DNA of 38,014 bases from a virus: UHGV virus genome UHGV-0042156, one strand, 5' to 3'. Below are positions 14,335 to 31,686 of the stretch, in pieces. Below the pieces are notes generated by a model. That model did not search any database. It was given only the letters and a program-made list of their open reading frames with translations, and was not told the origin of the DNA. The position numbers were made by a program, and so were the translations under genes. Each line of letters opens with the position of its first letter. Position 1 is the first letter of the stretch.

Positions 14335-14363
14335 ATGACCATCTACATCACTGAGCTAATAAC

Positions 14364-14395
14364 AGGCCTGCTGGTAATCGCAGGCCTTTTTATTT
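14364..14395 (+). terminator. Rho-independent terminator (tR2-like) before nin region
   Basis: AGGCCTGC-TGGTAATC-GCAGGCCT followed by TTTTTATTT. Confidence 0.65.
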
Positions 14396-14411
14396 GGGGG
14401 AGAGGGAAGTC

Positions 14412-14828
14412 ATGAAAAAGCTAACCTTTGAAATTCGATCTCCAGCACATCAGCAAAACGCTATTCACGCAGTACAGCAAATCCTTCCAGACCCAACCAA
14501 GCCAATCGTAGTAACCATTCAGGAGCGCAACCGCAGCATTCGGCAAAATGCACGCCTTCACGCGATGCTATCTGAAATAAGTAAGAAGGCTACATATCAT
14601 GGAAAAGTAAGAAATATTGAGTTTTGGAAGGGGTTATTCGTTTCTGGTTGGCAGATTGCAACCAACCAGCACCCTGAGATTATATCAGGGTTAGAAGGTG
14701 AGCTAATAAACATCAGAGAGAGTACGGCGACTCTATCTGTAAAAAAAATATCCGAAATAATGGACTACATAGAAGCATATTGTGCCATGAACTCAATTCA
14801 TCTTAGCGAATGGAGGAATTATGATTGA
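14412..14828 (+). CDS. ninB: NinB recombination protein (3' part divergent)
   Basis: MKKLTFEIRSPAHQQNAIHAVQQILPDPTKPIVVTIQERNRS matches lambda NinB as recalled, then continues in AT-rich divergent sequence to a new C-terminus. Confidence 0.85.
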   Translation: MKKLTFEIRSPAHQQNAIHAVQQILPDPTKPIVVTIQERNRSIRQNARLHAMLSEISKKATYHGKVRNIEFWKGLFVSGWQIATNQHPEIISGLEGELINIRESTATLSVKKISEIMDYIEAYCAMNSIHLSEWRNYD

Positions 14829-15394
14829 GGTTTGGGTAGATATCGAAGGGATTCCATTTTATCAGGTTAGCAATAAAGGAAATTTCAGGTCTATTACGAG
14901 GGAAGTTACAGTAACATCAACCAGACAGAGGCCATATAAGAAAATAATTAATGGCACTAGCGTAAAACCATTCAAGTGCAAGTCGACAGGATATCTTCAA
15001 ATAAAGGTATACGGTAAGAAATACAGCGCCCACAGGATAGTTGCGAAAGCATTCTGTACAGGGTTCTGTGATGGCTTGGTAGTTAATCACAAAAATGGGC
15101 AAAGAGATGACAATAGGGCTGAAAACCTTGAATGGGTATCACATTCTGAAAACTCAAAGCACGGATATAAACAAAATGGAAGAATACCTATATCGCTAGG
15201 TAAATTTAGTGGTGATCATCCTGCCAGTAAAGCTGTTATTTCTACTGACATGAAAACTGGTGAGGAGGTTTATTATGAAGCAGCTATGGATGCTGTCAGA
15301 GAAGGATTTGATAGTTCGTCAATTAGTCGTTGCTGTAATGGCGAAAGCTCATATCACAAAGGAAGATTCTGGCGATTTGCAAATGAAACAATGA
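14530..15394 (+). mobile_element. Putative HNH cassette: divergent ninB 3' segment plus HNH gene
   Basis: AT-rich block beginning where ninB diverges from lambda and ending where lambda-like ninB tail codons (KARWGDRAA) resume, now fused to the HNH ORF. Confidence 0.4.
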
Positions 15395-15423
15395 AAGCGA
15401 GATGGGGAGATCGGGCTGCATGA
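14821..15423 (+). CDS. HNH endonuclease (NUMOD4 plus HNH), C-terminally fused to ninB tail codons
   Basis: GIPFYQVSNKGNFRS (NUMOD4-like), VNHKNGQRDDNRAENLEWVSHSEN (HNH); ends ...[10 protein letters not shown]. Confidence 0.8.
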   Translation: MIEVWVDIEGIPFYQVSNKGNFRSITREVTVTSTRQRPYKKIINGTSVKPFKCKSTGYLQIKVYGKKYSAHRIVAKAFCTGFCDGLVVNHKNGQRDDNRAENLEWVSHSENSKHGYKQNGRIPISLGKFSGDHPASKAVISTDMKTGEEVYYEAAMDAVREGFDSSSISRCCNGESSYHKGRFWRFANETMKARWGDRAA

Positions 15424-15947
15424 CTATCAAATCAAATACACCAGCACACGACAAGGACTGCTGGAGAACGCCGCTTTGGCTTTTTGATGCACTGGATATT
15501 GAGTTTGGATTCTGGCTGGATTCGGCAGCGAGCGACAAAAATGCTCTGTGCGCTCACTGGCTAACTGAGGCCGACGACGCACTCAATTCTGAGTGGATAA
15601 GCCGCGGTGCAATCTGGAATAACCCACCGTACAGCAATATCAGGCCGTGGGTGGAAAAAGCCGCTGAGCAGTGCATACAACAGCGCCAGACGGTAGTGAT
15701 GCTTGTGCCAGAGGATATGTCTGTCGGATGGTTCAGCAAGGCTCTGGAGAGTGTTGACGAAGTTCGCATCATCACTGATGGACGGATTAATTTTATCGAA
15801 CCATCGACAGGGCTGGAGAAGAAGGGAAACAGCAAAGGTTCCATGCTGCTGATTTGGCGACCGTTCATCAGTCCTCGACGGATGTTTACTACCGTATCCA
15901 AAGCGGCATTGATGGCGATCGGGCAGGGCGTCAGGAGGGCTGCATGA
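15420..15947 (+). CDS. Phage DNA N6-adenine methyltransferase
   Basis: NPPY motif (WNNPPYSN); 175 aa; start overlaps HNH stop (ATGA), the junction used by ninC in lambda. Confidence 0.8.
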
Positions 15948-16120
15948 GACGACAGCGACGAAGTATCACCGACATAATCTGCGAAAACTGCAAATACCTT
16001 CCAACTAAACGCTCCAGAAATAAACGCAAGCCAATCCCAAAAGAATCTGACGTAAAAACCTTCAATTACACGGCTCATCTGTGGGATATCCGGTGGCTAA
16101 GACATCGTGCGAGGAAATGA
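15944..16120 (+). CDS. ninE: NinE
   Basis: [58 protein letters not shown], colinear with lambda NinE. Confidence 0.75.
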
Positions 16121-16533
16121 CAATGGATTATTCACAGTTAAGTGATTTTGAAATTAACAGACGAGTATGTGAGGCTTTAGATATGGAGGAGCATTTCTTC
16201 ATACCTGATGACGAAGCAGACTTCGATTCTGAGATCCCCACTGACGAAAGAGGTCCTATTTGGCAGACGCAAAAAAGGGATATTAATGGCTTCCGTTCTT
16301 CAAACGGAAATTGCTTCAATCCTTGCAATAATCCTGAATATGCGTGGCCAATTATCACTGAAAACAAAATCAGCATAATGTTTGATAGTACCGATACGAG
16401 ATATGAAGGCGAATATCACGAGTGGTGTGATGCGATTTCATCTTGTCAAAAGTTCGGAATTCAGTATCAGTCTAATCCACTCCGCGCCGCCATGATTGTC
16501 TTTCTCATGATGCAGGACGCCAATAATGCTTAG
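16117..16533 (+). CDS. Nin-region hypothetical protein (NinX-like position)
   Basis: 138-aa ORF, start overlaps ninE stop; acidic N-terminal half. Confidence 0.6.
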
Positions 16534-16702
16534 CCCATCCCAATCCCTTCAATACCAGAAAGAAAGCGTCGAGCGGGCTTTAACGTGCGCTAACTGCGGT
16601 CAGAAGCTGCATGTGCTGGAAGTTCACGTGTGCTCAGATTGCTGCGCAGAACTGATGAGCGATCCGAATAGCTCAATGTACGAGGAAGAAGACGATGAAT
16701 GA
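16526..16702 (+). CDS. ninF: NinF
   Basis: Manual translation [58 protein letters not shown], near-identical to lambda NinF as recalled; below ORF-track size cutoff. Confidence 0.7.
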   Translation: MLSPSQSLQYQKESVERALTCANCGQKLHVLEVHVCSDCCAELMSDPNSSMYEEEDDE

Positions 16703-17204
16703 TGTTAAAGAAAAAGATATCCCCGGCTTTGAGGGTATATATAAAGTAAATGAAAATGGAGACATCATTTCATGCCGTAAATCAAAAAAATTATCTCATG
16801 GCATTAAACCAGGAGGATATGCATTTGTCGGTCTGTATCCAGGTGGCGGGAAAAGACCATCATATAAAATGGTTCACAGAATTGTTGCAGAAGTATTTAT
16901 TGATAACCCAGATGGCAAACCGGAAGTTAATCACAAGGATGGAAATAAACTTAATAATAAAGTTGAAAATCTTGAGTGGGTAACGCGAACAGAAAATGCG
17001 AAACATGGATTTGATTCCGGATTGCTTGTTCATGGGTTTAATCATCACTTCTGCAAACTAACGCCAGAACAAGTGAAATCAATATATAAATCAAAAGGCA
17101 AATACAGAGATATAGCCAAAGAATTTGGTGTTTGTGCGCAGACAGTGTGCAACATAAAAAACAAATCAGCGTACCGACGTTTTTTGGAGGGGATTGATGT
17201 TTAG
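16695..17204 (+). CDS. HNH endonuclease (NUMOD4 plus HNH plus C-terminal HTH)
   Basis: IPGFEGIYKVNENGDIIS, VNHKDGNKLNNKVENLEWVTRTEN, DIAKEFGVCAQTVCNIKN; overlaps ninF stop and next gene start; AT-rich. Confidence 0.8.
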   Translation: MNDVKEKDIPGFEGIYKVNENGDIISCRKSKKLSHGIKPGGYAFVGLYPGGGKRPSYKMVHRIVAEVFIDNPDGKPEVNHKDGNKLNNKVENLEWVTRTENAKHGFDSGLLVHGFNHHFCKLTPEQVKSIYKSKGKYRDIAKEFGVCAQTVCNIKNKSAYRRFLEGIDV

Positions 17205-17472
17205 AAGCAAAAAATGGCTTCAGGCAGTCAGGGATATTGAATTTTGCGTTCTTTGCGGAAGATACGGAGTTCAGGCCGCTCACAGAAATGAAGGGAAGGG
17301 GGTTGGGATTAAAGTAGATGATTGCCTTACTGCTGCGCTATGTGTTGATTGTCATTCAAGAATTGATAATGGGAGAGATATGAGCAGGGAAGAGCGAAGG
17401 GCTGAAATGGATCGGGCCATTGTGCTTACCCTTAAAAAATTGGTTAACAATGGGAGGGTGTTTGTCCAATGA
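17197..17472 (+). CDS. Cys-rich nin-region protein (DUF1364-like)
   Basis: CVLCGRYG...CVDCHSRID Cys4 pattern; precedes rusA. Confidence 0.6.
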   Translation: MFRSKKWLQAVRDIEFCVLCGRYGVQAAHRNEGKGVGIKVDDCLTAALCVDCHSRIDNGRDMSREERRAEMDRAIVLTLKKLVNNGRVFVQ

Positions 17473-17831
17473 ACGAATATCAGTTTGTGCTTCCATACCC
17501 GCCGTCGCTGAATACCTACTGGCGAAGACGGGGGAGTCAATACTACATCAGCGATAAAGGCCAGAAATACCGAAAAGACGTTCAGCAAATCATCCGCCAA
17601 CTTAAGTTAGACATTTTCACCAAATCACGACTCCGCATCAAAGTCATCGCAGACGTTCCAGACTCCCGCCGCCGCGACCTCGACAACATCCTGAAAGGTT
17701 TACTCGACTCCCTTATCCACGCCGGATTTGCGGAAGACGACGAGCAATTCGATGACATTCGCGTAATTCGTGGCGTGAAAGTACCAGGCGGAAGGCTTGG
17801 AATAAAAATCACCGAACTGGAGAGCGTATGA
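17469..17831 (+). CDS. rusA: RusA Holliday-junction resolvase
   Basis: 120-aa ORF MNEYQFVLPYPPSLNTYWRRRG...DLDNILKGLLDSL. Confidence 0.85.
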   Translation: MNEYQFVLPYPPSLNTYWRRRGSQYYISDKGQKYRKDVQQIIRQLKLDIFTKSRLRIKVIADVPDSRRRDLDNILKGLLDSLIHAGFAEDDEQFDDIRVIRGVKVPGGRLGIKITELESV

Positions 17832-18016
17832 ACGCCACAATTCAAACGATACCAGAGCTTCTTATCCAGACACGAGGCAATCAGACCGAAGTGGCAAGGA
17901 TGCTTTCCTGCGCAAGAGGAACAGTGCTCAAGTACAACCGAGACAGCAAAGGCGAGCGTCACGTAATAGTTAACGGCGTCCTGATGGTCAAACAGGGCAA
18001 GAGGGGAAGACGATGA
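17828..18016 (+). CDS. ninH: NinH
   Basis: TIPELLIQTRGNQTEVARMLSCARGTVLKYNRDSKGERHVIVNGVLMV colinear with lambda NinH. Confidence 0.7.
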   Translation: MNATIQTIPELLIQTRGNQTEVARMLSCARGTVLKYNRDSKGERHVIVNGVLMVKQGKRGRR

Positions 18017-18531
18017 GCATAAGAGAACTAAACCTCACCAAAGAACAGCACGATTGGCTGAATGGCTGGCTTGAACTGTGGGGCGCATGGGTTTATTCAG
18101 GCCGCCTGGAAAAGCGCATGAGCAGCGTAATAGCGAAGTTCATGGAGAGCGTAGAGCCGGGAAGAGTTATGACAAGGCCAATGTGTAATGATGATGATGG
18201 AATGTTGATTTCTCAGGTCGTCGATTCCGTCATGTACATTGACAAGAAAGCCTTTAGCATCCTCCTCAGCTACTACGCTCATGGTTCATCTAAGCGAGCA
18301 ATTGCATCCTACTATCACGCGACTGCAAAGCCACGCAAGATGTGTGGACGTGGTGGCGAGGGATGGAGAAAACCTTCACTGGCAACCTGTAGAAACGAAA
18401 TTGACGACATCCTGAAAGCGTCATTATTTGTTTTATACCAGCCGATGCAAAATGCTTTCAAAATGCGTAAACGTGTTGAGAAAGTTAAGCATGTTGCTGT
18501 TAAAAGCCTTGACATGCAATTAGCCATTTAG
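18013..18531 (+). CDS. Q: Late-gene antiterminator Q (non-lambda type)
   Basis: 172-aa ORF immediately upstream of late promoter/terminator and lysis genes; not colinear with lambda Q. Confidence 0.8.
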   Translation: MSIRELNLTKEQHDWLNGWLELWGAWVYSGRLEKRMSSVIAKFMESVEPGRVMTRPMCNDDDGMLISQVVDSVMYIDKKAFSILLSYYAHGSSKRAIASYYHATAKPRKMCGRGGEGWRKPSLATCRNEIDDILKASLFVLYQPMQNAFKMRKRVEKVKHVAVKSLDMQLAI

Positions 18532-18538
18532 CCATAAT
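18509..18538 (+). promoter_or_regulatory. Candidate late promoter pR-prime (TTGACA-N18-CATAAT) overlapping Q 3' end
   Basis: TTGACA at 18509..18514, CATAAT at 18533..18538, just upstream of the terminator. Confidence 0.4.
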
Positions 18539-18547
18539 TAGAAGGTA

Positions 18548-18594
18548 AGCTGCCGTTAGTGACTCTTAAGTTGCAACGGTGGCTTTTTTATTTG
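18548..18594 (+). terminator. tR-prime-like terminator
   Basis: 10-bp stem AGCTGCCGTT/AACGGTGGCT (two G-U pairs), 17-nt loop, then TTTTTTATTTG; downstream leader resumes lambda-like sequence. Confidence 0.5.
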
Positions 18595-19029
18595 CACAAC
18601 AGGTAAGAGCATTGAACCCGCAGACCTCGCGGAATTGGTGAAAGGTGCCGCGCAGTGCTCTTATCGTTGTGGTGAATGCACAGGCTGATGTGTAAGGGCA
18701 AGAATCTTTCGCTGGATTCGGTGTGGCCACGTAGCCCGCTGTAGGCAGTTGCAGCAAACCGGAGATCAGCACCGGTCGCCACAATCCAAACTGAGCCGTA
18801 GCCACTGGCTATCATGAATTCATCGGTGATAGTTACGCTGCGGACTTCTACACATGACCTTCGTGAAAGCGGGTAGCAAGAGGTTGCGCTAACAACCTCC
18901 TGCCGTTTTGCCCGTGCATATCGGTCACGAACAAATCTGATTACTAAACACAGTAGCCTGGATTTGTTCTATCAGTAATCGACCTTATTCCTAATTAAAT
19001 AGAGCAAATCCCCTTATTGGGGGTAAGAC
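18595..19029 (+). other. Untranslated late-operon leader (lambda-like)
   Basis: No credible coding frame; lambda-like sequence up to S start as recalled. Confidence 0.5.
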
Positions 19030-19353
19030 ATGAAGATGCCAGAAAAACATGACCTGTTAGCCGCCATTCTCGCGGCAAAGGAACAAGGCATCGGGGCAAT
19101 CCTTGCGTTTGCAATGGCGTACCTTCGCGGCAGATATAATGGCGGTGCGTTTACAAAAACAGTAATCGACGCAACGATGTGCGCCATTATCGCCTGGTTC
19201 ATTCGTGACCTTCTCGACTTCGCCGGACTAAGTAGCAATCTCGCTTATATAACGAGCGTGTTCATCGGCTACATCGGTACTGACTCGATTGGTTCGCTTA
19301 TCAAACGCTTCGCTGCTAAAAAAGCCGGAGTAGAAGATGGTGGAAATCAATAA
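19030..19353 (+). CDS. S: Holin S (lambda S, dual-start MKM)
   Basis: [34 protein letters not shown]... matches lambda S. Confidence 0.95.
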
Positions 19354-19813
19354 TCAACGTAAGGCGTTCCTCGATATGCTGGCGTGGTCAGAGGGAACTG
19401 ATAACGGACGTCAGAAAACCAGAAATCATGGTTATGACGTCATTGTTGGCGGAGAGCTATTCACTGATTACTCCGATCACCCTCGCAAACTTGTCACGCT
19501 AAACCCCAAACTCAAATCAACAGCCGCCGGGCGCTACCAGCTTCTTTCCCGTTGGTGGGATTCCTATCGTAAGCAGCTTGGCCTGAAAGACTTCTCCCCC
19601 AAAAGCCAGGACGCAGTGGCATTGCAGCAGATTAAAGAACGTGGCGCTTTACCGATGATTGATCGGGGTGATATTCGTCAGGCTATTGATCGTTGCAGCA
19701 ATATTTGGGCTTCATTGCCCGGTGCTGGCTACGGTCAGTATGAACACAAGATCGATAGTCTGATTGCCAAATTCAAAGAAGCTGGCGGGGTGGTTAATGA
19801 AACTTCGCTATAA
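19337..19813 (+). CDS. R: Endolysin R (lytic transglycosylase)
   Basis: [45 protein letters not shown]... matches lambda R. Confidence 0.95.
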
Positions 19814-20258
19814 GCTGGTTATTTCTGCTTTCCTCCTGACTTTATTCGGTTCTCTCGTCTGGTCAGCTAATCATTACCACAATAAAGCCATTGAATACAA
19901 AAAACAGCGCGACGAAAACGCTATGGCATTAGATTCGGCTATGGCGACGATCTCTGATATGCAGAAGCGTCAACGTGACGTAGCAGAACTCGATGCCAGA
20001 TATACAAAGGAGCTTGCTGATGCTAACGCGACTATCGAAAGTCTCCGTGCTGATGTTTCTGCTGGTCGTAAGCGCCTGCAAGTCGCCGCCACCTGTGCAA
20101 AGTCAACGACCGGAGCCAGCAGCATGGGCGATGGAGAAAGCCCAAGACTTACAGCAGATGCTGAACTCAATTATTACCGTCTCCGAAGTGGAATCGACAA
20201 GATAACCGCGCAGGTTAACTACTTGCAGGAATATATCAACACGCAGTGCCTGAAATGA
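19797..20258 (+). CDS. Rz: Spanin inner-membrane subunit Rz
   Basis: Start [22 protein letters not shown] (TM) then coiled-coil; ORF-track start 19764 is an extension. Confidence 0.85.
   Translation: MKLRYKLVISAFLLTLFGSLVWSANHYHNKAIEYKKQRDENAMALDSAMATISDMQKRQRDVAELDARYTKELADANATIESLRADVSAGRKRLQVAATCAKSTTGASSMGDGESPRLTADAELNYYRLRSGIDKITAQVNYLQEYINTQCLK
20020..20205 (+). CDS. Rz1: Spanin outer-membrane lipoprotein Rz1 (embedded in Rz, +1 frame)
   Basis: MLTRLSKVSVLMFLLVVSAC lipobox, Pro-rich mature part; AGGAG 7 nt upstream. Confidence 0.7.
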   Translation: MLTRLSKVSVLMFLLVVSACKSPPPVQSQRPEPAAWAMEKAQDLQQMLNSIITVSEVESTR

Positions 20259-20265
20259 ACAATCA

Positions 20266-20292
20266 TAGCCTCGTAATAGCGAGGCTTTTTAC
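20266..20292 (+). terminator. Rho-independent terminator after Rz
   Basis: GCCTCG-TAATA-GCGAGGC then TTTTT. Confidence 0.65.
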
Positions 20293-20308
20293 TAACCGAG
20301 GGTAAATA

Positions 20309-20497
20309 ATGTCATCTCCAATCATGAAGTATTTCGCTTATCAACACCTCCCCGCGCATCTGCAGGAAGTAAGTAAGCCAATCGGTGACCTTGCGACACT
20401 GATGGATGAATCACTGCCTGACAGTGCTGAAAAGTCAGCAGGTCTCCGCAAGCTGCTCGAAGCTAAAGATGCACTGATGCGAGCAAAGCTGGGGTAA
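20309..20497 (+). CDS. Hypothetical small protein (62 aa)
   Basis: GAGGG SD; sits between two terminators. Confidence 0.6.
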   Translation: MSSPIMKYFAYQHLPAHLQEVSKPIGDLATLMDESLPDSAEKSAGLRKLLEAKDALMRAKLG

Positions 20498-20550
20498 GTC
20501 ATTACAAAGCCTATCTACGGGTGGGCTTGATAATGGCTTATACCCTACAC

Positions 20551-20577
20551 GGGATAACTTAACTGATATCCCTTTTA
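20551..20577 (+). terminator. Terminator-like hairpin
   Basis: GGGATA-acttaactga-TATCCC then TTTT. Confidence 0.45.
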
Positions 20578-20597
20578 ACGGATAAACGGAGCCAACA

Positions 20598-20840
20598 ATG
20601 GCAGAGATTATTCCCATGACTGAAGAACAGAAATTCCAGTTAGAGATTTACAAGCTGGTCATGAACCAGAACGCAGCCGCAGAAGAAGCATTTCAATTCA
20701 TTGGCACTGACGAACTGAAGCTTGAGCTATTTAAAATTCACTTCCAGTCAGGTGGCGCTAATTCAGATATCACGACCCGAACTATCGAAGCGGTGCGTAA
20801 ATCGAGGGAAGCGTTAGACCTGTTCACCACCGGAGCATGA
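20598..20840 (+). CDS. Hypothetical small protein (80 aa)
   Basis: ACGGAG SD; stop 1 nt before next start. Confidence 0.6.
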   Translation: MAEIIPMTEEQKFQLEIYKLVMNQNAAAEEAFQFIGTDELKLELFKIHFQSGGANSDITTRTIEAVRKSREALDLFTTGA

Positions 20841-20841
20841 T

Positions 20842-21330
20842 ATGACCACTATTGCATGGGATGGAAAGACCCTGGCATCTGACACCCAGGCATCATCTGG
20901 TGATGTTGTGTGTTCGTATACAGAACAAAAGATTTACACACCGCCAGAATCTGGGTGGGAGGTTTGCGGCAGTAAAGTGGTTGCATTAGGTTGTTCTGGT
21001 GATTGCGGCGCGGAGATGGAATTGCAGGAACTGCTTAAGAACAACCTGACGTATGCATCAGAATTTCTCCCGACATTCTCTTTCACCGCGCTTGCTATCA
21101 TCGGTGCTGGTCGTGCTTACATCATCTCAAAAGAGAAAGGCGAAACGCGGGCGAGTATTTCGCGACAGGTTGAACCGTATGCCATTGGTAGTGGTTGGCT
21201 GATTGCTCGCACAGCCATGCACTGCGGCAAAAATGCGAGAGAAGCGGTACAAGTCGCAATTGATATTGACTGCTATTCCGGCGGCAGCGTTGATTCGTTC
21301 CCCGCTGGGAAGCAAACAGAAGGGAAATAA
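20842..21330 (+). CDS. HslV/proteasome-beta-like Ntn-hydrolase (stand-alone)
   Basis: 162 aa; N-terminal MTTIAWDG (Thr nucleophile position as in HslV MTTIVSV); AIGSG motif; overall colinear with E. coli HslV. Confidence 0.7.
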
Positions 21331-21335
21331 TCAAT

Positions 21336-21824
21336 ATGGCAGCACCAAAGGGCAACCGATTTTGGGAGGCCCGCAGTAGTCATGGGCGAAATCCTAAATT
21401 CGAATCGCCTGAGGCGCTGTGGGCTGCTTGTTGTGAATACTTCGAGTGGGCTGATGATAACCCACTATGGGAGGGTAAGGTATTTTCATATCAGGGAGAA
21501 ATAATTAAGGCTAATGTCCCTAAGATGCGAGCCATGACTATTTCAGGATTGTGTACCTTCCTTGATATCACCAGGCAAACGTGGGGAACCTTCCGGTCAA
21601 TGGAAGGTTTTTCTGACGTCACATCACGAGCGGAAGACATCATCTACGACCAGAAATTCTCTGGCGCAGCCGCTGACCTTCTCAACGCTAACATCATCGC
21701 CCGTGATTTGGGCCTCAAAGAGCAGTCGCAAGTTGAAGACGTGACACCTGATAAGGGAGATCGCGATAAGCGGCGCTCTCGTATCAAGGAGCTATTCAAC
21801 CGTGGAACTGGACGCGATTCTTGA
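21336..21824 (+). CDS. terS: Terminase small subunit (P22 gp3-like)
   Basis: 162-aa ORF immediately upstream of and overlapping terL. Confidence 0.85.
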
Positions 21825-23298
21825 TAACCTGAGCGACGAAGAGCAAATCGAGTTGCTCGAGCTACTCGAAGAAGAAGAGAACTACCGGAACACACACCTG
21901 CTATATGAATTTACGCCATACAGCAAACAGCGTGAGTTCATCGACGCCGGACATGACTATCCAGAGCGCTGTTTTATGGCTGGTAACCAGCTTGGTAAGT
22001 CATTTACTGGTGCTGCTGAAGTCGCGTTTCACCTTACCGGGCGTTATCCGGGCACAAAAGGCTATCCTGCTGATGGTAAATATGGCGGTGAGTGGGAAGG
22101 TAAGCGTTTCTATGAGCCTGTTGTCTTCTGGATTGGCGGCGAGACAAACGAGACGGTAACCAAAACGACTCAACGCATCCTGTGCGGTCGTATTGAAGAG
22201 AATGATGAGCCGGGCTACGGTTCAATACCGAAAGAGGACATCATTAGCTGGAAGAAGTCTCCTTTCTTTCCGAACCTTGTTGATCATCTTCTGGTTAAGC
22301 ATCACACGACTGATGGCGTTGAAGATGGCATTTCAATCTGCTACTTCAAACCATACTCGCAAGGCCGCGCTCGCTGGCAGGGTGACACAATCCACGGCGT
22401 GTGGTTTGACGAAGAGCCACCATACAGCATTTATGGCGAAGGTCTTACCCGTACCAACAAATACGGGCAATTCTCAATTCTGACGTTTACCCCGCTGATG
22501 GGGATGTCTGACGTTGTTACCAAGTTCCTGAAGAATCCCAGCAAGTCGCAGAAAGTGGTCAACATGACCATCTATGACGCTGAGCACTATACCGACGAGC
22601 AGAAAGAGCAAATCATCGCATCCTATCCTGAGCATGAGAGAGAGGCGCGTGCTCGCGGTATTCCTACGATGGGTAGTGGTCGAATCTTCCAGATACCGGA
22701 AGAGACTATTAAGTGTCAGCCGTTCGAGTGTCCTGATCACTTCTACGTCATCAATGCAATGGACTTCGGATGGGATCACCCACAGGCACACATCCAGCTT
22801 TGGTGGGATAAAGACGAGGACGTGATTTATCTTTCTCGCGTCTGGAAGGCCAAACAGAAGAAGGCGACAGAGGCATGGAGTGCTGTTAAAGCATGGAGCA
22901 AAAACACCCCTACGGCTTGGCCTCATGACGGGCATCAGCACGAAAAGGGAGGCGGCGCTCAGCTCAAGGAACAATACGCCGACGCTGGGTTCGATATGTT
23001 GCCAGATCATGCAACATGGCCTGATGGAGGTAATGCGGTCGAACCCGGGATAGCAGAGATACGCGACATGATGCTCGACGGTCGTTTCAAGGTATTTAAC
23101 ACCTGCGAGCCATTCTTTGAAGAGTTTCGCCTGTATCACCGCGATGAGAACGGGAAGATCGTCAAGCTAAATGACGACATCCTTTCTGCTGTTCGCTATG
23201 GCTACATGATGAGGCGTTTTGCAATACAGATGCGAGACATCAAAGATCCTAAAGAGATTGATTACTCAAGCTACAACATACCTTGCGGAGTTGGATGA
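21802..23298 (+). CDS. terL: Terminase large subunit (P22 gp2-like)
   Basis: 498 aa; N-terminus [37 protein letters not shown] and full-length colinearity with P22 gp2 as recalled. Confidence 0.95.
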
Positions 23299-25499
23299 TG
23301 GCTGATGATAGAAAGATGACTGACTGGCATCGCAAGGTGCTGTGCAACTTTGATAATGCCTGGTCAGCAACGCAGGATATGCGTGAGCAGATTATTGAGG
23401 CTCAACGTTTCGTCCGGGTGTCCGGCGCACAGTGGGAAGGCAGCACAAACGCTGGTTACTCATTTGATGAAGGCAGGTTCGAGCATTATCCGCGTTTTGA
23501 ATTGAATAAGATTGCCCGTGAATGTGATCGCATCATTGGCGAGTATCGACAGAATCGCATCAGCGTTAAATTCAGGCCGAAGGACGATAAGGCATCGGAA
23601 GCGTTAGCCGAAAAGATGAACGGCAAATTCCGCGCTGACTATCAGGAAACATCCGGTGGCGAAGCGTGTGATAACGCATTTGATGATGCTGTAACGGGCG
23701 GATTCGGTTGTTTCCGCATGTGTGCCGATTACGAAGATGAAATGGACCCAAGTAACGAGCAGCGACGCATCAGCCTTCTTCCTGTTTACGACCCAGCGAC
23801 ATGCGTCTTCTTCGATCAGGACAGCAAGCAATATGACCGCTCTGATGCTATGTGGGCTATGGAAATGTTCTCCATGACGCCTAAAGCGTTCGAAGCTGAA
23901 TACCCTGATTCCATCGCTGCAAGTCTTTCTCGTGATGACACTGGCACTCAATATGACTGGTCAACTCCTGATGCTATCTATGTTGGTCGCTACTATGAAG
24001 TCCGCATAGAGAAGGTGAAGCTCACGGCGTGGCGCAACCCTGTTAGCGGAGAAACGGCAATCTATGATGAAGAGCAAATCAAAGATATTGTCGACGAGCT
24101 AACCGATGGCGCATTCGAACTGATTGGTGAGCGAACTGTGAAGAAACGCCGCGTTTATTGCGGCCTTCTGTCTGGCGCTGAATGGCTGGAAGAACCGAAG
24201 CGTATTCCGGGCGAACATATTCCACTCATCCCGGTATATGGGCGTCGCTCATTTGTTGATAATCAGGAGCGAATCGAAGGCCACGCAGCAAAAGCGATGG
24301 ATGCACAGCGTCTTGAGAACCTGATGGTTTCCATGATTGCAGATAACGCTACTCAGGCTGGCGGTGATGGCATTCCTGTAGTTGATGTTGACATGATTCC
24401 TGGTCCTCTCGCCAATCATTGGGCGGAGCGCAACAAAAAGCGCCCGGCGTTCCTGCCGATGGTCAGTCTGAAAAACAAAAACGGAGATATTACTGCGCAG
24501 GCTCAGGTCAGCAGTTATACGCCTCCGACACAAATGCCGCCAGCTCTTGCCGGGCTATTGCAGTACACCGGAACGGCTATTCAGCAAATTACAGGTGCGT
24601 CGCAGCTTGAGAACATGCCGAGCAACGTCGCCACCGATACCGTTGATAGCATCTTTAACCGGATGGACACGCAGTCCTATATCTACATGGACAACATGGC
24701 TAAATCCATGCGCCGCGCTGGCGTTGTGTGGCTTTCTATGGCGCGTGAGGTCTATGGCAGCGATACGCCAATGCGCATCGTTAATGAGGACGGCAGCGAT
24801 GACGTGGCGCTGATGACTGGTGAAGTGATTGACCGTCAGACAGGGCAGGTTATCGCGCTTAACGACCTTTCGCAGGGTAACTATGAAGTGACTGTCGATG
24901 TTGGTCAGTCGTTCGCTACTCGCCGTGATGCAACGGTTAAGTCGTTACTTTCCATGCTGGCACTTATCCCACCAGGAACGCCGAAGCACGACCTTGTATC
25001 GTCGATGATTCTCGACAATATGGACGGCGAAGGGATGGACGACCTGAAAGAATACAACCGCAATCAGTTGCTTCTGTCTGGCGTTATCAAGCCGAGAACG
25101 CCAGAAGAACAGCAAATGGTTGAGCAGGCGAAACAACAACAGGCCAGTCAGCCAGATCCGGCTATGGTTGCAGCGCAAGGTCAGCTTCTTGCTGGTCAGG
25201 CTGAATTGCAGAAAGCGCAGAACGAACAGGCAGCCATTCAGGTTAAAGCATTCCAGGCACAGACTGATGCTCAGGTTGCAGCGGCAAATGTTGTGAAAAT
25301 CCTCGCATCTGCCGATAGCCAGCAGAAATCTGATATCCGCGAGGCTCTGAAACTGCTCGGACAGTTCCAGCAACAGCAAGGAGACAATGCCCGTGCTGAT
25401 GCAGAGCTTGTCCTGAAAAGTCAGGCACAGGGCCATGCGCAGCGCATGGACATCAGCAGCATCCTGCAAAAATCAACTCAGCAACAACCACAGCAGTAA
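23295..25499 (+). CDS. Portal protein (P22 gp1-like)
   Basis: About 735 aa; C-terminal PEEQQMVEQAKQQQASQPDPAMVAAQGQLLAGQAELQKAQ region resembles P22 portal barrel; start overlaps terL stop. Confidence 0.9.
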   Translation: MMADDRKMTDWHRKVLCNFDNAWSATQDMREQIIEAQRFVRVSGAQWEGSTNAGYSFDEGRFEHYPRFELNKIARECDRIIGEYRQNRISVKFRPKDDKASEALAEKMNGKFRADYQETSGGEACDNAFDDAVTGGFGCFRMCADYEDEMDPSNEQRRISLLPVYDPATCVFFDQDSKQYDRSDAMWAMEMFSMTPKAFEAEYPDSIAASLSRDDTGTQYDWSTPDAIYVGRYYEVRIEKVKLTAWRNPVSGETAIYDEEQIKDIVDELTDGAFELIGERTVKKRRVYCGLLSGAEWLEEPKRIPGEHIPLIPVYGRRSFVDNQERIEGHAAKAMDAQRLENLMVSMIADNATQAGGDGIPVVDVDMIPGPLANHWAERNKKRPAFLPMVSLKNKNGDITAQAQVSSYTPPTQMPPALAGLLQYTGTAIQQITGASQLENMPSNVATDTVDSIFNRMDTQSYIYMDNMAKSMRRAGVVWLSMAREVYGSDTPMRIVNEDGSDDVALMTGEVIDRQTGQVIALNDLSQGNYEVTVDVGQSFATRRDATVKSLLSMLALIPPGTPKHDLVSSMILDNMDGEGMDDLKEYNRNQLLLSGVIKPRTPEEQQMVEQAKQQQASQPDPAMVAAQGQLLAGQAELQKAQNEQAAIQVKAFQAQTDAQVAAANVVKILASADSQQKSDIREALKLLGQFQQQQGDNARADAELVLKSQAQGHAQRMDISSILQKSTQQQPQQ

Positions 25500-25589
25500 T
25501 TAACCCATAACGTGCAATGGCTGTCTTTATGAGGCCTGGCACCCTATTGCCTTCCGATGGGCTGAACATCGAGTAAACAGGGGTAACAA

Positions 25590-26483
25590 ATGGACCAGAT
25601 GGCAGAAAACACACCAGAAGTTGAAATCGAACCCGACGCGTCAGAGCAGATTCCTGATGATGTCGAACTGGCTGAAGAAGTCGAAAAAGCAGATGGCAGT
25701 GAGTCCTCAGGAAATGATGCAGAGGAAGCTACTGACACTGATGACGACGAATCAGAACAGGAATTCTACTTTGGTGACGAAAAGCTGGATTCGCCAACCA
25801 GCGAAGATGGCGCAGAGCATGGACTGGTAAAACACCTGCGCAAGACGATTAAAGAGAAAGACCGCGAGCTGAAAGAGCTGATGCGTCAGTCTCAGAAACC
25901 CGTCGAGCAGCAGCCGGTAATCACTCAACCACCGCGAATGCCAAAACTGGATGATGAGGACATCGGTTTCGATGAAGAAATCTACCAGCAACGCATGGCT
26001 AAGTGGGCAGAGGATAACGGCAAGTACCAGCAACAGGAGATGGCTCGCAAGCAGAAGGAGCAGGAGCTTCAGGCTGCCTATCAAGAGCGATTATCCAAAT
26101 ATCAGCAACGTGTTAAGGCTCTCAAAGTTCCTGGCTATCAGGAAGCTGAGCAGGCCGTACTCGAGGAAATCCCCATCGAGACACAAAACGCGATCCTGTT
26201 TGAGTCAGAGAAGCCGGAAATCGTTGTTCTGGCACTCGGTCGCAACGCTGAACTGCGCAAGCAACTGGCAGAAGCTACCAACCCCGTAGCAATTGGTCGT
26301 CTGCTGGAACGTATCGAATCGAAGGCCAGAATCATGCCAAAAGCAAAAACCACGGCAGCCACAACCCCGACAGTTAAGGGGAGCAACGGCGCAGTAATCA
26401 ACAACCTCGACAAATTGAAAGCCAAGGCGCTGGAAACTGGTGACTGGACGCCGTATTTCGCCGCTAAAAAGGCAAAAAAATAA
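25590..26483 (+). CDS. Scaffolding protein (gp8-like)
   Basis: 297 aa, acidic N-terminus, coiled-coil, basic C-terminus; between portal and coat. Confidence 0.7.
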   Translation: MDQMAENTPEVEIEPDASEQIPDDVELAEEVEKADGSESSGNDAEEATDTDDDESEQEFYFGDEKLDSPTSEDGAEHGLVKHLRKTIKEKDRELKELMRQSQKPVEQQPVITQPPRMPKLDDEDIGFDEEIYQQRMAKWAEDNGKYQQQEMARKQKEQELQAAYQERLSKYQQRVKALKVPGYQEAEQAVLEEIPIETQNAILFESEKPEIVVLALGRNAELRKQLAEATNPVAIGRLLERIESKARIMPKAKTTAATTPTVKGSNGAVINNLDKLKAKALETGDWTPYFAAKKAKK

Positions 26484-26501
26484 CCTATCGGAGCATTAAG
26501 C

Positions 26502-27755
26502 ATGCCTAACCAATTAGCAAAAGACCTTGAAATCATGTTCGAAAACTACGTTGAAGGCTTTGAGGCCGCCTGCGTAGTTTCCCGTAACGCTAAAAAATTC
26601 CGTCCCGGTGATACAGCAATGCAGCGAGCAGGTGATGTTCTGTATCGTCCGCAGCATTACCACATGAACATTGAGGAAGGCCTCGACCTCAGCAGCAAAA
26701 CGCCAACAGCACTGGTTCAGCGCCTTGTTCCTTCTGTGTTCAAGGAGCCGAAAAACATTCTGTACACTCTGGATGCGCGTGAAATGCGTGACCCGGAACA
26801 TAAAACTGAAGCTGGTCGCGCCGCAGGTATGCGCCTTGCTGCACAGATTGACTCTGACCTGATTTCCATGGTCACGCAGCGTGCTACTAACGTGATCACA
26901 ATGGCTGACTCAACCACTGGTTCACAGGGCCGTGATTTGTGGAACTGTGCGGCAGGTATTGATGCCACCATGACGGCGATTGGTGTACCACAGGGTATCA
27001 ACCGCCGCTCTTTCTGGAACCCCTTCAACTACAAAGACCTTGCTGGCGAGCTTGGTCACCGTGCCTATGCTCAGGGCGCAACCCTGACAGCATACGAAAA
27101 AGCGCAGATCCCTCCGGTTGCGTCCTTCGATAGCTACAAGACCGATATTTCTGGTCGTGTTCCGAAGGGTACAGCAACTTCCCTGACGCTGGCGGCTAAA
27201 CCTGCGCACAAGGTTGAAGCGAAAGATGCCAACGATATGCCAGTGGATAACCGACAGGGGACCATTACGGTATCTGCATCTGGTTTGCAGGTTGGCGATG
27301 CGTTCACCATTGCTGGCGTGAATTCCGTACACCAGATCACCAAAGATACCACCGGGCAGCCGCAGGTATTCCGCGTTCTGGCAGTAAGCGGAACGATAGT
27401 AACTATCTCCCCGAAAATTCTGCCGCCTGACAACGCAGATGTCGCCAGCCGTCCATATGCAAACGTTGATGCTAACGCGGCAAATGGTGCAGCAATTACC
27501 ATTCTCAACAAGAATGCCGCACCGGCTAACCTGTTCTGGGCTGATGGTTCTGTTGAACTGATGTACGGCAAACTGGCGTTCCCGACTGGTCAGGGTCCAC
27601 AGGTAATGACAGCAACCACCGAGCAGGGCGCTACGCTGATCATGTCTTATGCCTTCGACCACATCAAAGGCGTAACCACTGCTCGTTTCACCACTCTGTA
27701 CGGTTGCTCTGTACTTGTTCCTGAATATACGGGCATCGTTATTGCCGGGCAGTAA
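26502..27755 (+). CDS. Major coat protein (P22 gp5-like)
   Basis: 417 aa; position and size as P22 coat; NLFWADGS motif similar to P22 NVFWADDA. Confidence 0.85.
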   Translation: MPNQLAKDLEIMFENYVEGFEAACVVSRNAKKFRPGDTAMQRAGDVLYRPQHYHMNIEEGLDLSSKTPTALVQRLVPSVFKEPKNILYTLDAREMRDPEHKTEAGRAAGMRLAAQIDSDLISMVTQRATNVITMADSTTGSQGRDLWNCAAGIDATMTAIGVPQGINRRSFWNPFNYKDLAGELGHRAYAQGATLTAYEKAQIPPVASFDSYKTDISGRVPKGTATSLTLAAKPAHKVEAKDANDMPVDNRQGTITVSASGLQVGDAFTIAGVNSVHQITKDTTGQPQVFRVLAVSGTIVTISPKILPPDNADVASRPYANVDANAANGAAITILNKNAAPANLFWADGSVELMYGKLAFPTGQGPQVMTATTEQGATLIMSYAFDHIKGVTTARFTTLYGCSVLVPEYTGIVIAGQ

Positions 27756-27761
27756 TTTTGG

Positions 27762-27786
27762 TGGGGCTTCGGCCCCATTTTTATTG
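27762..27786 (+). terminator. Rho-independent terminator after coat gene
   Basis: GGGGC-TTCG-GCCCC then ATTTTTATT. Confidence 0.7.
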
Positions 27787-27796
27787 GGAGAAGACA

Positions 27797-27985
27797 ATGG
27801 CACGAACAATGCTCTATAAGCCGGGCAACATGATCACCTGTGGTCAGTTTGCTGTCGATTACATCATTGTTGATGACGAAGAAGTTAAATCTCACCTGAA
27901 AAAAGGCTGGGTAAAAACTCCTGAAGAAACCGCAACGAAGCATAAAGTGGCTAAGGCGGAAGAAGATGGCGAAAACGAAGGGTGA
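27797..27985 (+). CDS. Small hypothetical protein between coat and gp4 (62 aa)
   Basis: GGGAGAAG SD; ORF-track start 27758 lies in the terminator and is rejected. Confidence 0.5.
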   Translation: MARTMLYKPGNMITCGQFAVDYIIVDDEEVKSHLKKGWVKTPEETATKHKVAKAEEDGENEG

Positions 27986-28427
27986 TCTCGTTCTAAAGGC
28001 TTTACGAAAAGCCGGGCTGTATTCCAATGCCACGTTGACAGATGCTGACCCTCAGGCAATTGAAGATGCCATTAATGACCTCGAAGACATGATGGCAGCA
28101 TGGCAGGCTAAAGGTATCGAGCTTGGGTATCAGTTTGCTGATACAGAAAACGGCATCATGCCGTTACCGGACGATGATTCAGGTATCCCTGCATGGGCAA
28201 ATGATGGCGTCGCTTTGAAACTCGCTGTGCAAGTGTGCATGGATAACGTCATTCAGCCGTCAGACGCTCTCCTTACCGCTGCTGACAGTGCATATCAGAC
28301 AATCTGCATCGCTTTAACCAAAATACCACCACTTGAGCGGCGAAATGACATGCCTCGCGGTAGTGGTAACAAAAGCGCGTTTACGTGGAATCGGTTTTAC
28401 ATCGAGAAAGATGATCCGAGTACGTGA
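27966..28427 (+). CDS. Head completion protein (P22 gp4-like)
   Basis: 153 aa; KTKGDLV...ATLTD...DLE.MMA resemble P22 gp4. Confidence 0.8.
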   Translation: MAKTKGDLVLKALRKAGLYSNATLTDADPQAIEDAINDLEDMMAAWQAKGIELGYQFADTENGIMPLPDDDSGIPAWANDGVALKLAVQVCMDNVIQPSDALLTAADSAYQTICIALTKIPPLERRNDMPRGSGNKSAFTWNRFYIEKDDPST

Positions 28428-28436
28428 GGTGAATAA

Positions 28437-28541
28437 ATGCCGATTCAGCAACTTCCGCTTATGAAAGGTGTCGGCAAAGACTTTCGAAACGCCGACTATA
28501 TCGACTATCTGCCAGTGAATATGTTGGCAATTTTGATATAA
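28437..28541 (+). pseudogene. Truncated original 5' end of gene 10 (31 native codons, then stop)
   Basis: [31 protein letters not shown] matches P22 gp10 N-terminus, then runs into ILI-stop at the insertion point. Confidence 0.65.
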
Positions 28542-29202
28542 TAAGTACATGAAAAATCGAAACTTTAAGGAGTAGATATGCTTTCTGAGAATGCTAAAGA
28601 TATACCTGGATTTGAAGGTGTTTATGCCGTAACAGAAGATGGCAGGGTGCATTCTCACTCACGTGTTGTTAAGGCTGCGCATGGCAGCACGCAACTCAGA
28701 AAGGGGCGCTGGTTAAAGCCTAAAATAAATCAGGGAAGGGTGCTTTATAATATCGGAGCAAAATGGACTTTTGCCCATCGAATCGTTGCAATGACATTCC
28801 TGCCAAATCCTGAAAACAAGCCTCAGGTAAATCATATTGATGGCAATCCACTCAATAATAACGTCAATAATCTTGAGTGGTGCACTCAAAGCGAAAACAT
28901 CAAACATGCATACGCCACAGGATTAAAGAAACCAATCAAGTTTTTCGGAACCAAGCACCCAAAACACAAGTTGAGTGATGACGATGTTCTTGCAATCAAG
29001 TCATCAAAAGAAAGCTTGTCAGTAATTGCGGCTAAGTACGGGATATCTAAGACCTGGGCAAGTAGGCTAAAGCGTGATGCTAACTGGGTTCATATAAAGG
29101 TTGATTCCAATGGCAATACAACAACTACCACTAATGAAGGGATTAGGGAAAAGTGCGGTTAATGCTGATTATATAGACCAACTTCCAGTCAATCTTTTAG
29201 CT
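28530..29202 (+). mobile_element. HNH endonuclease cassette inserted in gene 10, carrying a divergent copy of gene-10 codons 1-31
   Basis: 93-bp segment 29110..29202 encodes the same 31 residues as 28437..28529 with different, AT-rich codons; HNH gene lies between the two copies. Confidence 0.55.
28578..29162 (+). CDS. HNH endonuclease (NUMOD4 plus HNH plus C-terminal HTH)
   Basis: IPGFEGVYAVTEDGRVHS, VNHIDGNPLNNNVNNLEWCTQSEN, VIAAKYGISKTWASRLKR; 3' end overlaps restored gene-10 start. Confidence 0.8.
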   Translation: MLSENAKDIPGFEGVYAVTEDGRVHSHSRVVKAAHGSTQLRKGRWLKPKINQGRVLYNIGAKWTFAHRIVAMTFLPNPENKPQVNHIDGNPLNNNVNNLEWCTQSENIKHAYATGLKKPIKFFGTKHPKHKLSDDDVLAIKSSKESLSVIAAKYGISKTWASRLKRDANWVHIKVDSNGNTTTTTNEGIREKCG

Positions 29203-30528
29203 ACGCCCAAGGAGGTGTTGAATTCATCGGGATATCTTCGCTCATTTCCGGGCATTGCCAAACGCTCTGATGTGAACGGCGTATCTCGCGGAGTCGAGTA
29301 CAACATGGCGCAGAATGCTGTTTATCGCGTGTGTGGTGGCAAACTGTACAAAGGAGAAAGTGAAGTCGGTGACGTCGCCGGAAGTGGTCGCGTATCAATG
29401 GCGCATGGTCGGACATCTCAGGCTGTAGGCGTTAATGGTCAACTGGTCGAGTATCGCTATGATGGCACGGTTAAAACCGTCTCAAACTGGCCTACAGACA
29501 GCGGATTCACGCAGTATGAGTTAGGTTCGGTTCGTGACATTACTCGCTTACGTGGGCGTTATGCGTGGTCAAAAGACGGTACTGATTCATGGTTCATCAC
29601 TGACCCTGAAGACGAATCGCATCCTGACCGCTACAGTGCACAATATCGTGCAGAATCGCAGCCGGACGGCATCATCGGCATCGGAACATGGCGAGACTTC
29701 ATCGTCTGCTTTGGTTCATCGACGATTGAATATTTCTCCCTGACTGGTGCAACCACCGTTGGTGCTGCTTTGTATGTCGCACAGCCATCGTTGATGGTGC
29801 AGAAAGGCATTGCAGGAACCTACTGCAAAACGCAGTTTTCTGATTCGTATGCGTTCATCAGCAATCCGGCAACAGGTGCGCCGTCTGTTTACATCATCGG
29901 ATCCGGTCAGGTGTCACCAATCGCCAGCGCGAGCATTGAGAAAATCCTCCGCTCCTACACCGCGGATGAACTGGCTGATGGCGTGATGGAGTCTCTGCGA
30001 TTTGATGCGCATGAACTGCTGATTATCCATCTTCCGCGCCATGTCCTCGTGTACGACGCATCTTCAAGCGCCAATGGTCCGCAATGGTGCGTACTGAAAA
30101 CAGGACTGTATGACGATGTGTACCGCGCTATCGACTTCATTTACGAAGGCAATCAGATAACGTGCGGCGATAAGCTGGAATCCGTGACCGGGAAATTGCA
30201 GTTCGATATCAGCAGCCAGTACGACAAGCAGCAGGAACACCTGCTGTTTACTCCGTTGTTCAAAGCGGATAACGCCAGAGTGTTCGACCTTGAGGTTGAG
30301 TCGTCAACTGGCGTTGCGCAGTATGCTGACCGCCTGTTCCTCTCTGCAACCACTGACGGCATCAATTACGGACGTGAGCAGATGATTGAGCAGAATGAAC
30401 CGTTCGTTTACGACAAACGCGTTTTGTGGAAGCGAGTCGGGCGCATCAGGAAAAATGTCGGCTTCAAATTGCGCGTTATCACGAAGTCACCTGTCACTCT
30501 TTCTGGCTGCCAGATAAGGATTGAGTAA
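29110..30528 (+). CDS. Tail hub protein (P22 gp10-like), restored full-length copy
   Basis: [49 protein letters not shown]... colinear with P22 gp10 (ORF-track start 29101). Confidence 0.85.
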
Positions 30529-31229
30529 TGGCGGATTCATCACTGAATAATCCTGTCGCGGTTCAGGCTACGCGCCTTGATGCTTCAATTTTGCCACGCA
30601 ATATCTTCTCGCAGTCGTATCTGCTGTACGTTCTCGCGCAAGGTACTGATGTTGGTAACGTGGCGAACAAGGCCAATGAAGCAGGGCAGGGCGCTTATGA
30701 TGCACAGGTCAGGAACGATGAGCAGGATGTGATTCTGGTCGATCACGAAGAAAGAATTCGTCAGCTCCGCATTGAAGTAGATGACCATGAAATCCGTATT
30801 GCTGCGAATACTGCGGCAATTGCAGCGCTGGATGTCAGACTAACCACGGCTGAAGGAGAAATAGTCACTTTACAGGCTGACGTCAGCGCTCTTGATGGCC
30901 GGGTTACGACTGCTGAGAGCAACATTTCTGCATTACAGGACGACTATGTATCGAAAACAGCCACTGCAACACAATCGCTGGCATCTCCCCTCAATGTAAC
31001 AACATCCTATTCGGTCGGCGGCACCAAGGTTATTGGTGCTCGTCAGACAGGGTGGACAGCGGCTACAGGTACGGCTCTTCGCGGCTCATTCAACGCTAAC
31101 CAGACATACACGGTAAGTGCCACATACACACGGTCTGAGGTGTCGGCTATGGCTACAGGATTGCAGCAGGCGCGGCAGCGTATCAAAGCTCTGGAAGATG
31201 CATTACGGACTCATGGGTTGATTGACTGA
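30528..31229 (+). CDS. Tail needle (P22 gp26-like)
   Basis: 233 aa; [25 protein letters not shown]... colinear with P22 gp26. Confidence 0.85.
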
Positions 31230-31684: not shown

Positions 31685-31686
31685 CC

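Follow-up and report, generated by a model that had tools for sequence, protein, structure and literature searches.

The viral genome UHGV-0042156, a stretch of 38,014 bp that is considered here at its full length (the window), encodes three free-standing HNH endonucleases, referred to as HNH-1 (14821-15423, 200 aa), HNH-2 (16695-17204, 169 aa) and HNH-3 (28578-29162, 194 aa), all on the + strand. The window matches a segment of the Escherichia coli MS 115-1 chromosome (NZ_CP146665.1) at 100% identity and constitutes a complete prophage, which is flanked by ybhB and ybhC and lies beside bioA, presumably in the region of the lambda attachment site. A preliminary description of the window spoke of a temperate lambdoid genome. 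Temperate it is, and its early region (integrase, excisionase, repressor, cI/cII-like genes, primase-helicase, nin region and Q) is indeed lambdoid, but its virion genes (terminase, portal, scaffold, coat, gp4, gp10, gp26, ejection proteins and tailspike) are P22-like. The closest relative is E. coli phage E212, and none of the deposited phages covers at least 80% of bases 12000-32000. Two of the nuclease genes lie in the nin region, as initially noted; the third, which had been assigned to the tail gene cluster, is placed more precisely inside the 5' end of gp10, a head-completion/tail-accessory gene.

By their sequences, all three proteins are members of the I-HmuI-like NUMOD4/HNH_3 family of homing endonucleases and have intact catalytic residues. 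Each exceeds the Pfam gathering cut-offs for both domains (23.4 bits for NUMOD4, PF07463, and 24.8 bits for HNH_3, PF13392), with 51.2 and 45.0 bits for HNH-1, 26.1 and 42.2 bits for HNH-2, and 34.1 and 41.7 bits for HNH-3. For each protein the best and sole significant match in the PDB is I-HmuI (PDB 1U3E), with E values of 4.3e-14 for HNH-1, 9.4e-19 for HNH-2 and 4.6e-08 for HNH-3. The three are also related to one another by pairwise BLASTP (E = 9e-14, 1e-27 and 7e-10), with 31-39% identity across the alignment, and in a three-way alignment HNH-2 and HNH-3 are each ~30% identical to HNH-1 and 39% identical to each other. Pfam, the alignment with I-HmuI and BLASTP all bear out the earlier statement that these ORFs (open reading frames) encode one family of related proteins, and the catalytic residues are kept in all three. 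The motif VNHxxG...NLEW...EN, part of which had been reported as shared, is found in all three proteins, but the IPGFEG-type motif described alongside it does not occur literally in HNH-1, which reads DIEGIPFYQV.

The catalytic His and distal Asn are H90 and N111 in HNH-1, H80 and N101 in HNH-2, and H86 and N107 in HNH-3; they align with H75 and N96 of I-HmuI and are invariant across 50 homologues. In the structure of I-HmuI the His is reported to be the general base and the distal Asn to be a metal-binding residue. One difference from I-HmuI is the residue that precedes the catalytic His, which is Asp in I-HmuI and Asn here. Inactivity through loss of a catalytic Asp was considered and ruled out, because Asn occupies this position in 84 of the 90 distinct motif variants among the homologues fetched, and is therefore the usual residue in the subfamily and no defect.

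The proteins are extended and multi-domain, with a helical or helix-turn-helix (HTH) DNA-binding domain at the C-terminus. The AlphaFold model of HNH-3, made with a 50-sequence alignment, has a mean predicted local distance difference test score (pLDDT) of 88.9. In it, an N-terminal beta-domain is followed by a beta-beta-alpha core and then, at residues 134-165, by three helices at the C-terminus. Among PDB entries, I-HmuI is again the sole significant match to the model (E = 4.4e-07 over 190 columns). The sequence alignment of HNH-1 extends to I-HmuI residue 170, and the evidence for a C-terminal HTH is weaker for HNH-2, where it consists of sub-threshold matches to HTH_23 and CENP-B_N. The order of domains, NUMOD4 beta-domain, HNH_3 core and C-terminal helices or HTH, is the same as in I-HmuI of the Bacillus phage SPO1. 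Identity to that enzyme is only about 25-35%, and, unlike the three genes considered here, I-HmuI is encoded in a group I intron, within a DNA polymerase gene. Across the whole window, none of the Rfam families, those of group I introns included, scored at or above its gathering threshold (within 28200-29500 the top match is unrelated, with E = 0.69), and the noncoding DNA beside HNH-3 amounts to 49 nt upstream and 0 nt downstream. An intron-encoded HNH-3 was ruled out on both grounds, the lack of an Rfam signal and too little noncoding DNA.

The insertion of HNH-3, at site 3, can be read from its junctions. In CUS-3 and E212, where the site is empty, only about 10 nt separate gp4 from the gp10 gene downstream. 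In the window, gp4 (27966-28427, +), the P22 tail accessory factor (Pfam P22_Tail-4, E = 7e-41), is followed by the first 92 nt of the native gp10 (28437-28528), which are identical to those of CUS-3 and make up a stub of 31 codons that then runs into stops (28437-28529, +); it is annotated as a pseudogene by the Prokaryotic Genome Annotation Pipeline (PGAP). Next come a cassette leader of 48 nt (28530-28577, +) and HNH-3, and a second gp10 start (29110) lies inside the last 53 nt of HNH-3, which hold the first 17 gp10 codons. The gp10 gene that begins there is intact (29110-30528, +; Pfam Phage_stabilise, E = 3.9e-297, positions 1-469 of 469) and is composed of a foreign 5' end, nt 1-120 (29110-29229, +), joined to a lineage-specific remainder. 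Over nt 1-92 the foreign and native 5' ends are 65% identical (60 of 92 nt match), and among the 31 codons 15 differ synonymously and 7 non-synonymously. Diagnostic bases delimit the foreign block as gp10 nt 1 to about nt 120, with the same right edge in 31 of 31 occupied loci, a fixed edge by which variable conversion tracts are neither indicated nor excluded. The block is found only alongside HNH-3, in 28 of 28 viral contigs and, among deposited phages, in UPF_BP1 only. The last ~25 residues of HNH-3, which include the 17 codons that overlap gp10, form a low-confidence tail of the model, and this fits an overlap that is tolerated by the nuclease and not functional for it. The HNH-3 cassette is hard to lose, because the essential gp10 has its start within the nuclease ORF and because the two copies of the gp10 5' end, at only 65% identity, are too diverged to be deleted easily through recombination between repeats.

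The leader contains an extended -10 element, TGATATAAT (28534-28542), and the Shine-Dalgarno sequence AAGGAG (28567-28572). The extended -10 element was spotted by eye and then checked by alignment: TGnTATAAT is invariant across seven aligned lineages whose nucleases are 68-99% identical, and the Shine-Dalgarno sequence and its spacing are conserved in the six lineages with a complete leader. Given this invariance, and because only 2 motifs of the TGnTATAAT type occur in the whole window, the cassette likely has its own promoter. A sigma-70 scan, which demands a match to the -35 element, reported no promoter at site 3. A terminator-like hairpin (28510-28529, +) is positioned exactly at the junction of stub and cassette. 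It has 8 pairs, of which 3 are G-C, with ATTTTGATAT directly after it, and the last base needed for its 3' arm is the first one of the insert; the hairpin is weak and may be due to chance.

Comparison of occupied loci shows how sharply the cassette is set off from its surroundings. In 29 close loci it is found at an identical offset and is 99-100% identical, while gp4 falls into unrelated allele groups, there are 17-18 versions of the stub, and identity in the remainder of gp10 is 88-100%. Nucleotide diversity is 0.0058 for leader plus HNH-3 and 0.0066 for the foreign block, versus 0.0485 for the stub and 0.0619 for gp10 nt 121-400, making the cassette about ten-fold less diverse than the flanks on both sides. 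The variants of the stub are mostly synonymous (18 synonymous versus 5 non-synonymous), so most of them arose in a working gene, before insertion of the cassette into each background. In UPF_BP1, a Salmonella-type stub that is 84-86% identical to that of the window stands beside a cassette that is 97-100% identical. HNH-3 is intact in 29 of 30 loci, the copy in strain ES5 being frameshifted.

More distant relatives of HNH-3 (68-83% identity), drawn from a large protein database, were found at 6 loci, all at the same place. Their stub ends after '...VNML' in 5 of the 6 and is partly eroded in the sixth; in all 6 a leader is present and the 3' end of the nuclease gene overlies a replacement 5' end of gp10; where the full gene is available, their gp10 is only about 67% identical to that of the window. 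These relatives were also considered as a possible ancestral state and rejected as such, the stub-plus-patch architecture being already in place. Low diversity of the cassette, together with the same position in gp10 genes that are only ~67% identical, points to recent, repeated and site-specific spread, and not to hitch-hiking.

At site 1, HNH-1 is located between ninB and dam. The ninB gene (14412-14828, +; Pfam NinB, E = 1.6e-40, near the full profile) is a hybrid allele, which BLAST against E212, Louie and P27 divides into a lambda/E212-type part (14412-14537, +) and a diverged 3' part of P27 type (14538-14828, +), here termed ninB'. At its 5' end HNH-1 shares 8 nt with the end of ninB, stop codon included, and at its 3' end the stop codon and the ATG of dam overlap (ATGA). 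Homology to E212 and Louie breaks inside ninB at 14537 and returns at 15393, from where the final 31 nt of HNH-1 (15393-15423, +), an in-frame C-terminus of KARWGDRAA plus stop, correspond to the ninB end of E212 and Louie in sequence, frame and stop codon. As these 31 nt are identical to the end of lambda-type ninB, the HNH-1 ORF ends in a remnant of the displaced gene, and this remnant is retained at HNH-1 loci with or without dam downstream. Furthermore, the P27-type 3' part of ninB and HNH-1 co-occur in 61 of 63 phage records. Across 28 other loci, ninB' and HNH-1 are ~99% identical to the window, the 5' part of ninB has a mean identity of 89%, and the gene downstream is dam in only 19. 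Flank comparisons at sites 1 and 2 are given as local-alignment identities, ungapped diversity having been dropped as inflated by indels.

Site 2 is bordered on the left by ninF (16526-16702, +). HNH-2 starts with ATGAATGA, which overlaps the ninF stop, and the same start is used by roi in those phages, E212 among them, that have roi at this position. On the right, a small Cys-rich gene resembling YbcO/DUF1364 (17197-17472, +) follows, for which Pfam gives sub-threshold matches to YbcO and DUF968 only (E about 1e-3), and homology to E212 returns at the start of rusA. The same YbcO-like allele, at 99-100% identity, follows HNH-2 in 22 of 22 occupied loci examined. As at site 1, the core of the cassette is 99-100% identical among loci and its flanks are mosaic. 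Two loci, one in E. coli AH19B041 and one in a viral contig, have in-frame internal deletions of HNH-2 that leave a 59-aa stub. Across phage records the YbcO-like gene is variously labelled 'HNH endonuclease', 'DUF1364' or 'YbcO', and the allele that E212 has at this position looks unrelated.

The distribution of the three genes bears on how they came to share one genome. Among deposited phages, near-identical copies of HNH-1 are found in about 60 Shiga toxin (Stx)-converting phages and in phage APC_JM3.2, those of HNH-2 only in phages Louie and Dewey, and that of HNH-3 only in Salmonella phage UPF_BP1; these 97-100% identical copies thus occur in different, non-overlapping sets of phages, and the carriers of each are without the other two nucleases. 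Moreover, the nearest relatives of each nuclease are encoded at the corresponding site of other phages, and its two companions here are more distant from it. The preliminary description had called the genes paralogous, a term that is not upheld in the sense of duplication within the genome. Duplication in this phage lineage would be in keeping with the common domain architecture and motifs, and is nevertheless very improbable in view of the 31-39% identity and the phage distribution just described, which rule out a recent duplication altogether. The same two facts, low mutual identity and near-identical copies in different sets of phages, argue for three independent acquisitions. G+C content points the same way, at 0.396 for HNH-1, 0.363 for HNH-2 and 0.421 for HNH-3, versus 0.473 for the window.

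Empty sites are common. E212 is empty at all three, and further empty sites are found in CUS-3, Louie and RM8082, while within occupied loci the offsets are identical at site 1 (n=28), site 2 (n=22) and site 3 (n=29). In a scan of 5,426 complete E. coli genomes, 920 contain the gp4-gp10 region, and 18 of these carry HNH-3, whereas HNH-2 was found in 33 of the 5,426. Only MS 115-1 and ET729 have HNH-2 and HNH-3 together, and because ET729 is without HNH-1, MS 115-1 is the sole genome with all three. One viral contig also has all three and is 100% identical at all three loci; it is probably a draft of the same strain. The ET729 prophage (NZ_CP100927.1, 1470500-1491500) looks defective, with its helicase gene and YbcO-like gene frameshifted and its small terminase gene truncated.

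Three copies within 38 kb are unusually dense, as had been suggested. The NUMOD4-HNH family occurs in 2,069 records of deposited phages at 2,636 places, an average of about 1.3 copies per record, and, among the matches listed, records with 3-5 copies are mostly those of Bacillus and Staphylococcus phages of 140-157 kb, with one Bacillus phage of 49 kb in addition. Other NUMOD4-HNH genes were seen at fixed junctions in related P22-like and lambdoid phages: the junction of gp10 with the needle gene gp26 is occupied by two distinct nuclease genes, which have 54% and 42% identity to HNH-3, and that of Q with the holin gene by one, with 47% identity.

The reading that we favor, with a probability of about three in four, is that each of the three genes is a free-standing homing-endonuclease cassette of I-HmuI-like type and that this mosaic P22-like/lambdoid prophage acquired each of them independently. 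What argues for homing-endonuclease cassettes is the fixed site of insertion, the presence/absence polymorphism, the conservation of a cassette within diverged and far more variable flanks, the diverged piece of a neighboring gene with which HNH-1 and HNH-3 are each linked, the intact catalytic residues and the existence of decayed copies. Free-standing homing endonucleases of T-even phages have the same overall pattern of signatures (PMC2988022). From such signatures in the sequence we infer that the proteins act as nucleases, where their targets lie, that repair drives their spread and that the leader serves as a promoter, and the homing activity proposed in the preliminary description is upheld on that footing.

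Under this reading, the enzyme would, during co-infection or superinfection of a lysogen, nick or cut a conserved gene of a related phage that is free of the cassette, and recombinational repair would copy in the cassette along with the diverged version of the targeted gene segment, which would presumably resist cutting. The likely target of HNH-1 would be lambda-type ninB, that of HNH-2 the junction of ninF and the YbcO-like gene, and that of HNH-3 gp10 around codon 31. The target of HNH-3 would be expected to include nt 93-120 or to span the break, because carriers keep the native nt 1-92 and not nt 93-120. The target of HNH-2 is the least clear of the three because site 2 has no gene-fragment scar.

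A number of points weigh against homing cassettes as the explanation. No donor lineage was found for the foreign block of gp10 nt 1-120: BLASTN searches of phages with queries of 216 nt and 120 nt returned only UPF_BP1, an exact-pattern scan of viral contigs returned only carriers of the cassette, and species-representative genomes held nothing closer than 49% protein identity. At site 2 the edges coincide with gene borders, with no fragment of a gene left behind, and three E. coli genomes have the YbcO-like allele immediately after a different ninF, without HNH-2. Activity of the three proteins is a prediction from sequence, and the putative promoter is a match to a consensus whose case is made by conservation. 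Occupancy is low (about 2% for HNH-3 and <1% for HNH-2), unlike what strong, unopposed drive would give, and homologous recombination at the mosaic junctions of lambdoid phages could move the cassettes without any cutting.

This last consideration leads to an alternative in which the genes are passive cargo, inert or inactive nuclease genes that ordinary homologous recombination has moved about with no advantage from cutting. The highly mosaic nature of lambdoid and P22-like genomes is in its favor, as are low occupancy, the decayed copies and the exact coincidence of the site 2 boundaries with gene borders. We nonetheless consider it unlikely, because HNH-3 is intact at all but one of its loci with catalytic residues invariant, because the DNA touching its cassette on either side is about ten times as diverse as the cassette itself, and because the identical position is occupied in phages whose gp10 is so diverged. 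Quite unlikely, in our estimate, is domestication, which the preliminary description had offered alongside homing and by which the nucleases would serve to exclude competing P22-like phages, to stimulate recombination in the nin region or to help packaging. The conserved extended -10 in the HNH-3 leader could permit expression outside the late operon, HNH-1 and HNH-2 sit among recombination genes (ninB, rusA), and homing endonucleases of T4 cause marker exclusion (PMC2988022). Against this, ~98% of related prophages are without HNH-3 and >99% of E. coli genomes without HNH-2; as most relatives are without each gene, none of the three is needed for growth. Exclusion would, moreover, be a by-product of the same cutting and needs no separate mechanism.

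The packaging variant fares no better. P22 packages its DNA by a headful mechanism. Because the nucleases belong to the HNH_3 family and are not of the HK97 gp74 type, because none of them adjoins the terminase genes (TerS and TerL, 21336-23298), and because the terminase and other virion genes are P22-like, a helper for cos cleavage is not expected. A terminase-associated HNH packaging factor was ruled out, the nuclease genes being dispensable and lying at a distance from TerS/TerL, about 4-6 kb on the upstream side and 5 kb on the downstream side.

Beyond the favored reading of homing cassettes, a more elaborate and rather doubtful possibility is that HNH-3 is a self-contained 'gene-patch' homing element of an essential virion gene, requiring neither intron nor intein, with its own promoter and with the consequence that a lysogen would exclude incoming phages and convert those that survive. 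If so, a promoter beside the retained left half of the target could allow expression from the prophage, possibly with autorepression like that of I-TevI; the lysogen would nick gp10 of incoming cassette-free P22-like phages, excluding them and converting the survivors; and the element would be almost impossible to delete.

Several known systems resemble these cassettes in part. Like the seg and mob genes of T4-like phages, they are positioned between or within conserved genes and are patchy among relatives; most seg and mob genes are promoter-less and translationally embedded, as are HNH-1 and HNH-2, and signals of an essential downstream gene that lie within a nuclease ORF favor retention, to which the gp10 start and 17 codons inside HNH-3 can be compared (PMC2988022). 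The differences are that the present cassettes reside in a temperate P22-like prophage of 38 kb instead of a large virulent phage, that the Seg enzymes belong to the GIY-YIG family, and that at site 3 coding sequence of the target gene, and not only a promoter, is duplicated and replaced. A similar outcome is described for free-standing homing endonuclease genes of fungal mitochondria, where the endonuclease ORF comes with a partial duplicate of the adjacent gene and a pseudogene fragment is left behind (PMC7487136). Those, however, are organellar and encode LAGLIDADG or GIY-YIG enzymes, whereas the present case has an HNH enzyme in a phage virion gene, an overlapping frame and a promoter-like leader.

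Within the P22-like group, HNH homing-endonuclease genes are reported for the temperate phages epsilon34 (gene 31; PMC2629481) and SEN22 (PMC5261728), at different sites, and as far as the available text of these accounts goes, junction anatomy, gene-patch structure and population comparison are not part of them. For SEN22, four mobile-element insertions are described (PMC5261728), and according to the epsilon34 paper of 2008 the ant moron was at that time the only inserted gene known from the morphogenetic cluster of P22-like phages (PMC2629481). Nuclease genes as boundaries of exchange between phages have been published for virulent phages, with no lambdoid or temperate examples (PMC10448857). 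RefSeq already annotates the three genes as HNH/NUMOD4 proteins and the gp10 stub as a pseudogene, and a limited literature search found no published description of the stub-plus-patch cassette in gp10 or of the ninB tail fusion.

Elsewhere in the prophage, the early-left region carries a predicted anti-Gabija gene: a 356-aa ORF at 6169-7239 on the - strand, a hypothetical protein in the PGAP annotation, matches Pfam Gad1 (Gabija anti-defence 1) with E = 9.1e-68. The lowest G+C content in the window (0.365-0.385) is found at 8500-10000, around the repressor gene in the immunity region. Directly upstream of the small terminase gene, a 162-aa ORF (20842-21330) has no Pfam match and is kept in ET729 as a hypothetical protein; its start, MTTIAWDG, is loosely reminiscent of N-terminal-nucleophile hydrolases.

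Overall, the three cassettes are a clear and well-delimited, if unexceptional, instance of a familiar class of mobile DNA. The practical effect is modest and concerns the annotation of gp10, ninB and the 93-nt pseudogene, as well as the reading of recombination breakpoints in Stx and P22-like phages. The gp10 cassette, with a cleanly delimited natural target (native gp10 nt ~80-130) and the sequenced strain MS 115-1, would offer a convenient system in which to test homing, exclusion and retention. Most work on homing endonucleases concerns large virulent phages, and here the elements are seen to spread among temperate enteric phages of the P22-like and lambdoid kinds, where the fixed junctions used are ninB/dam, ninF/YbcO-like gene, Q/holin, gp4/gp10 and gp10/gp26. 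Provided that the enzymes are active, they would contribute to the mosaic boundaries in these genomes, including boundaries inside the virion gene cluster.

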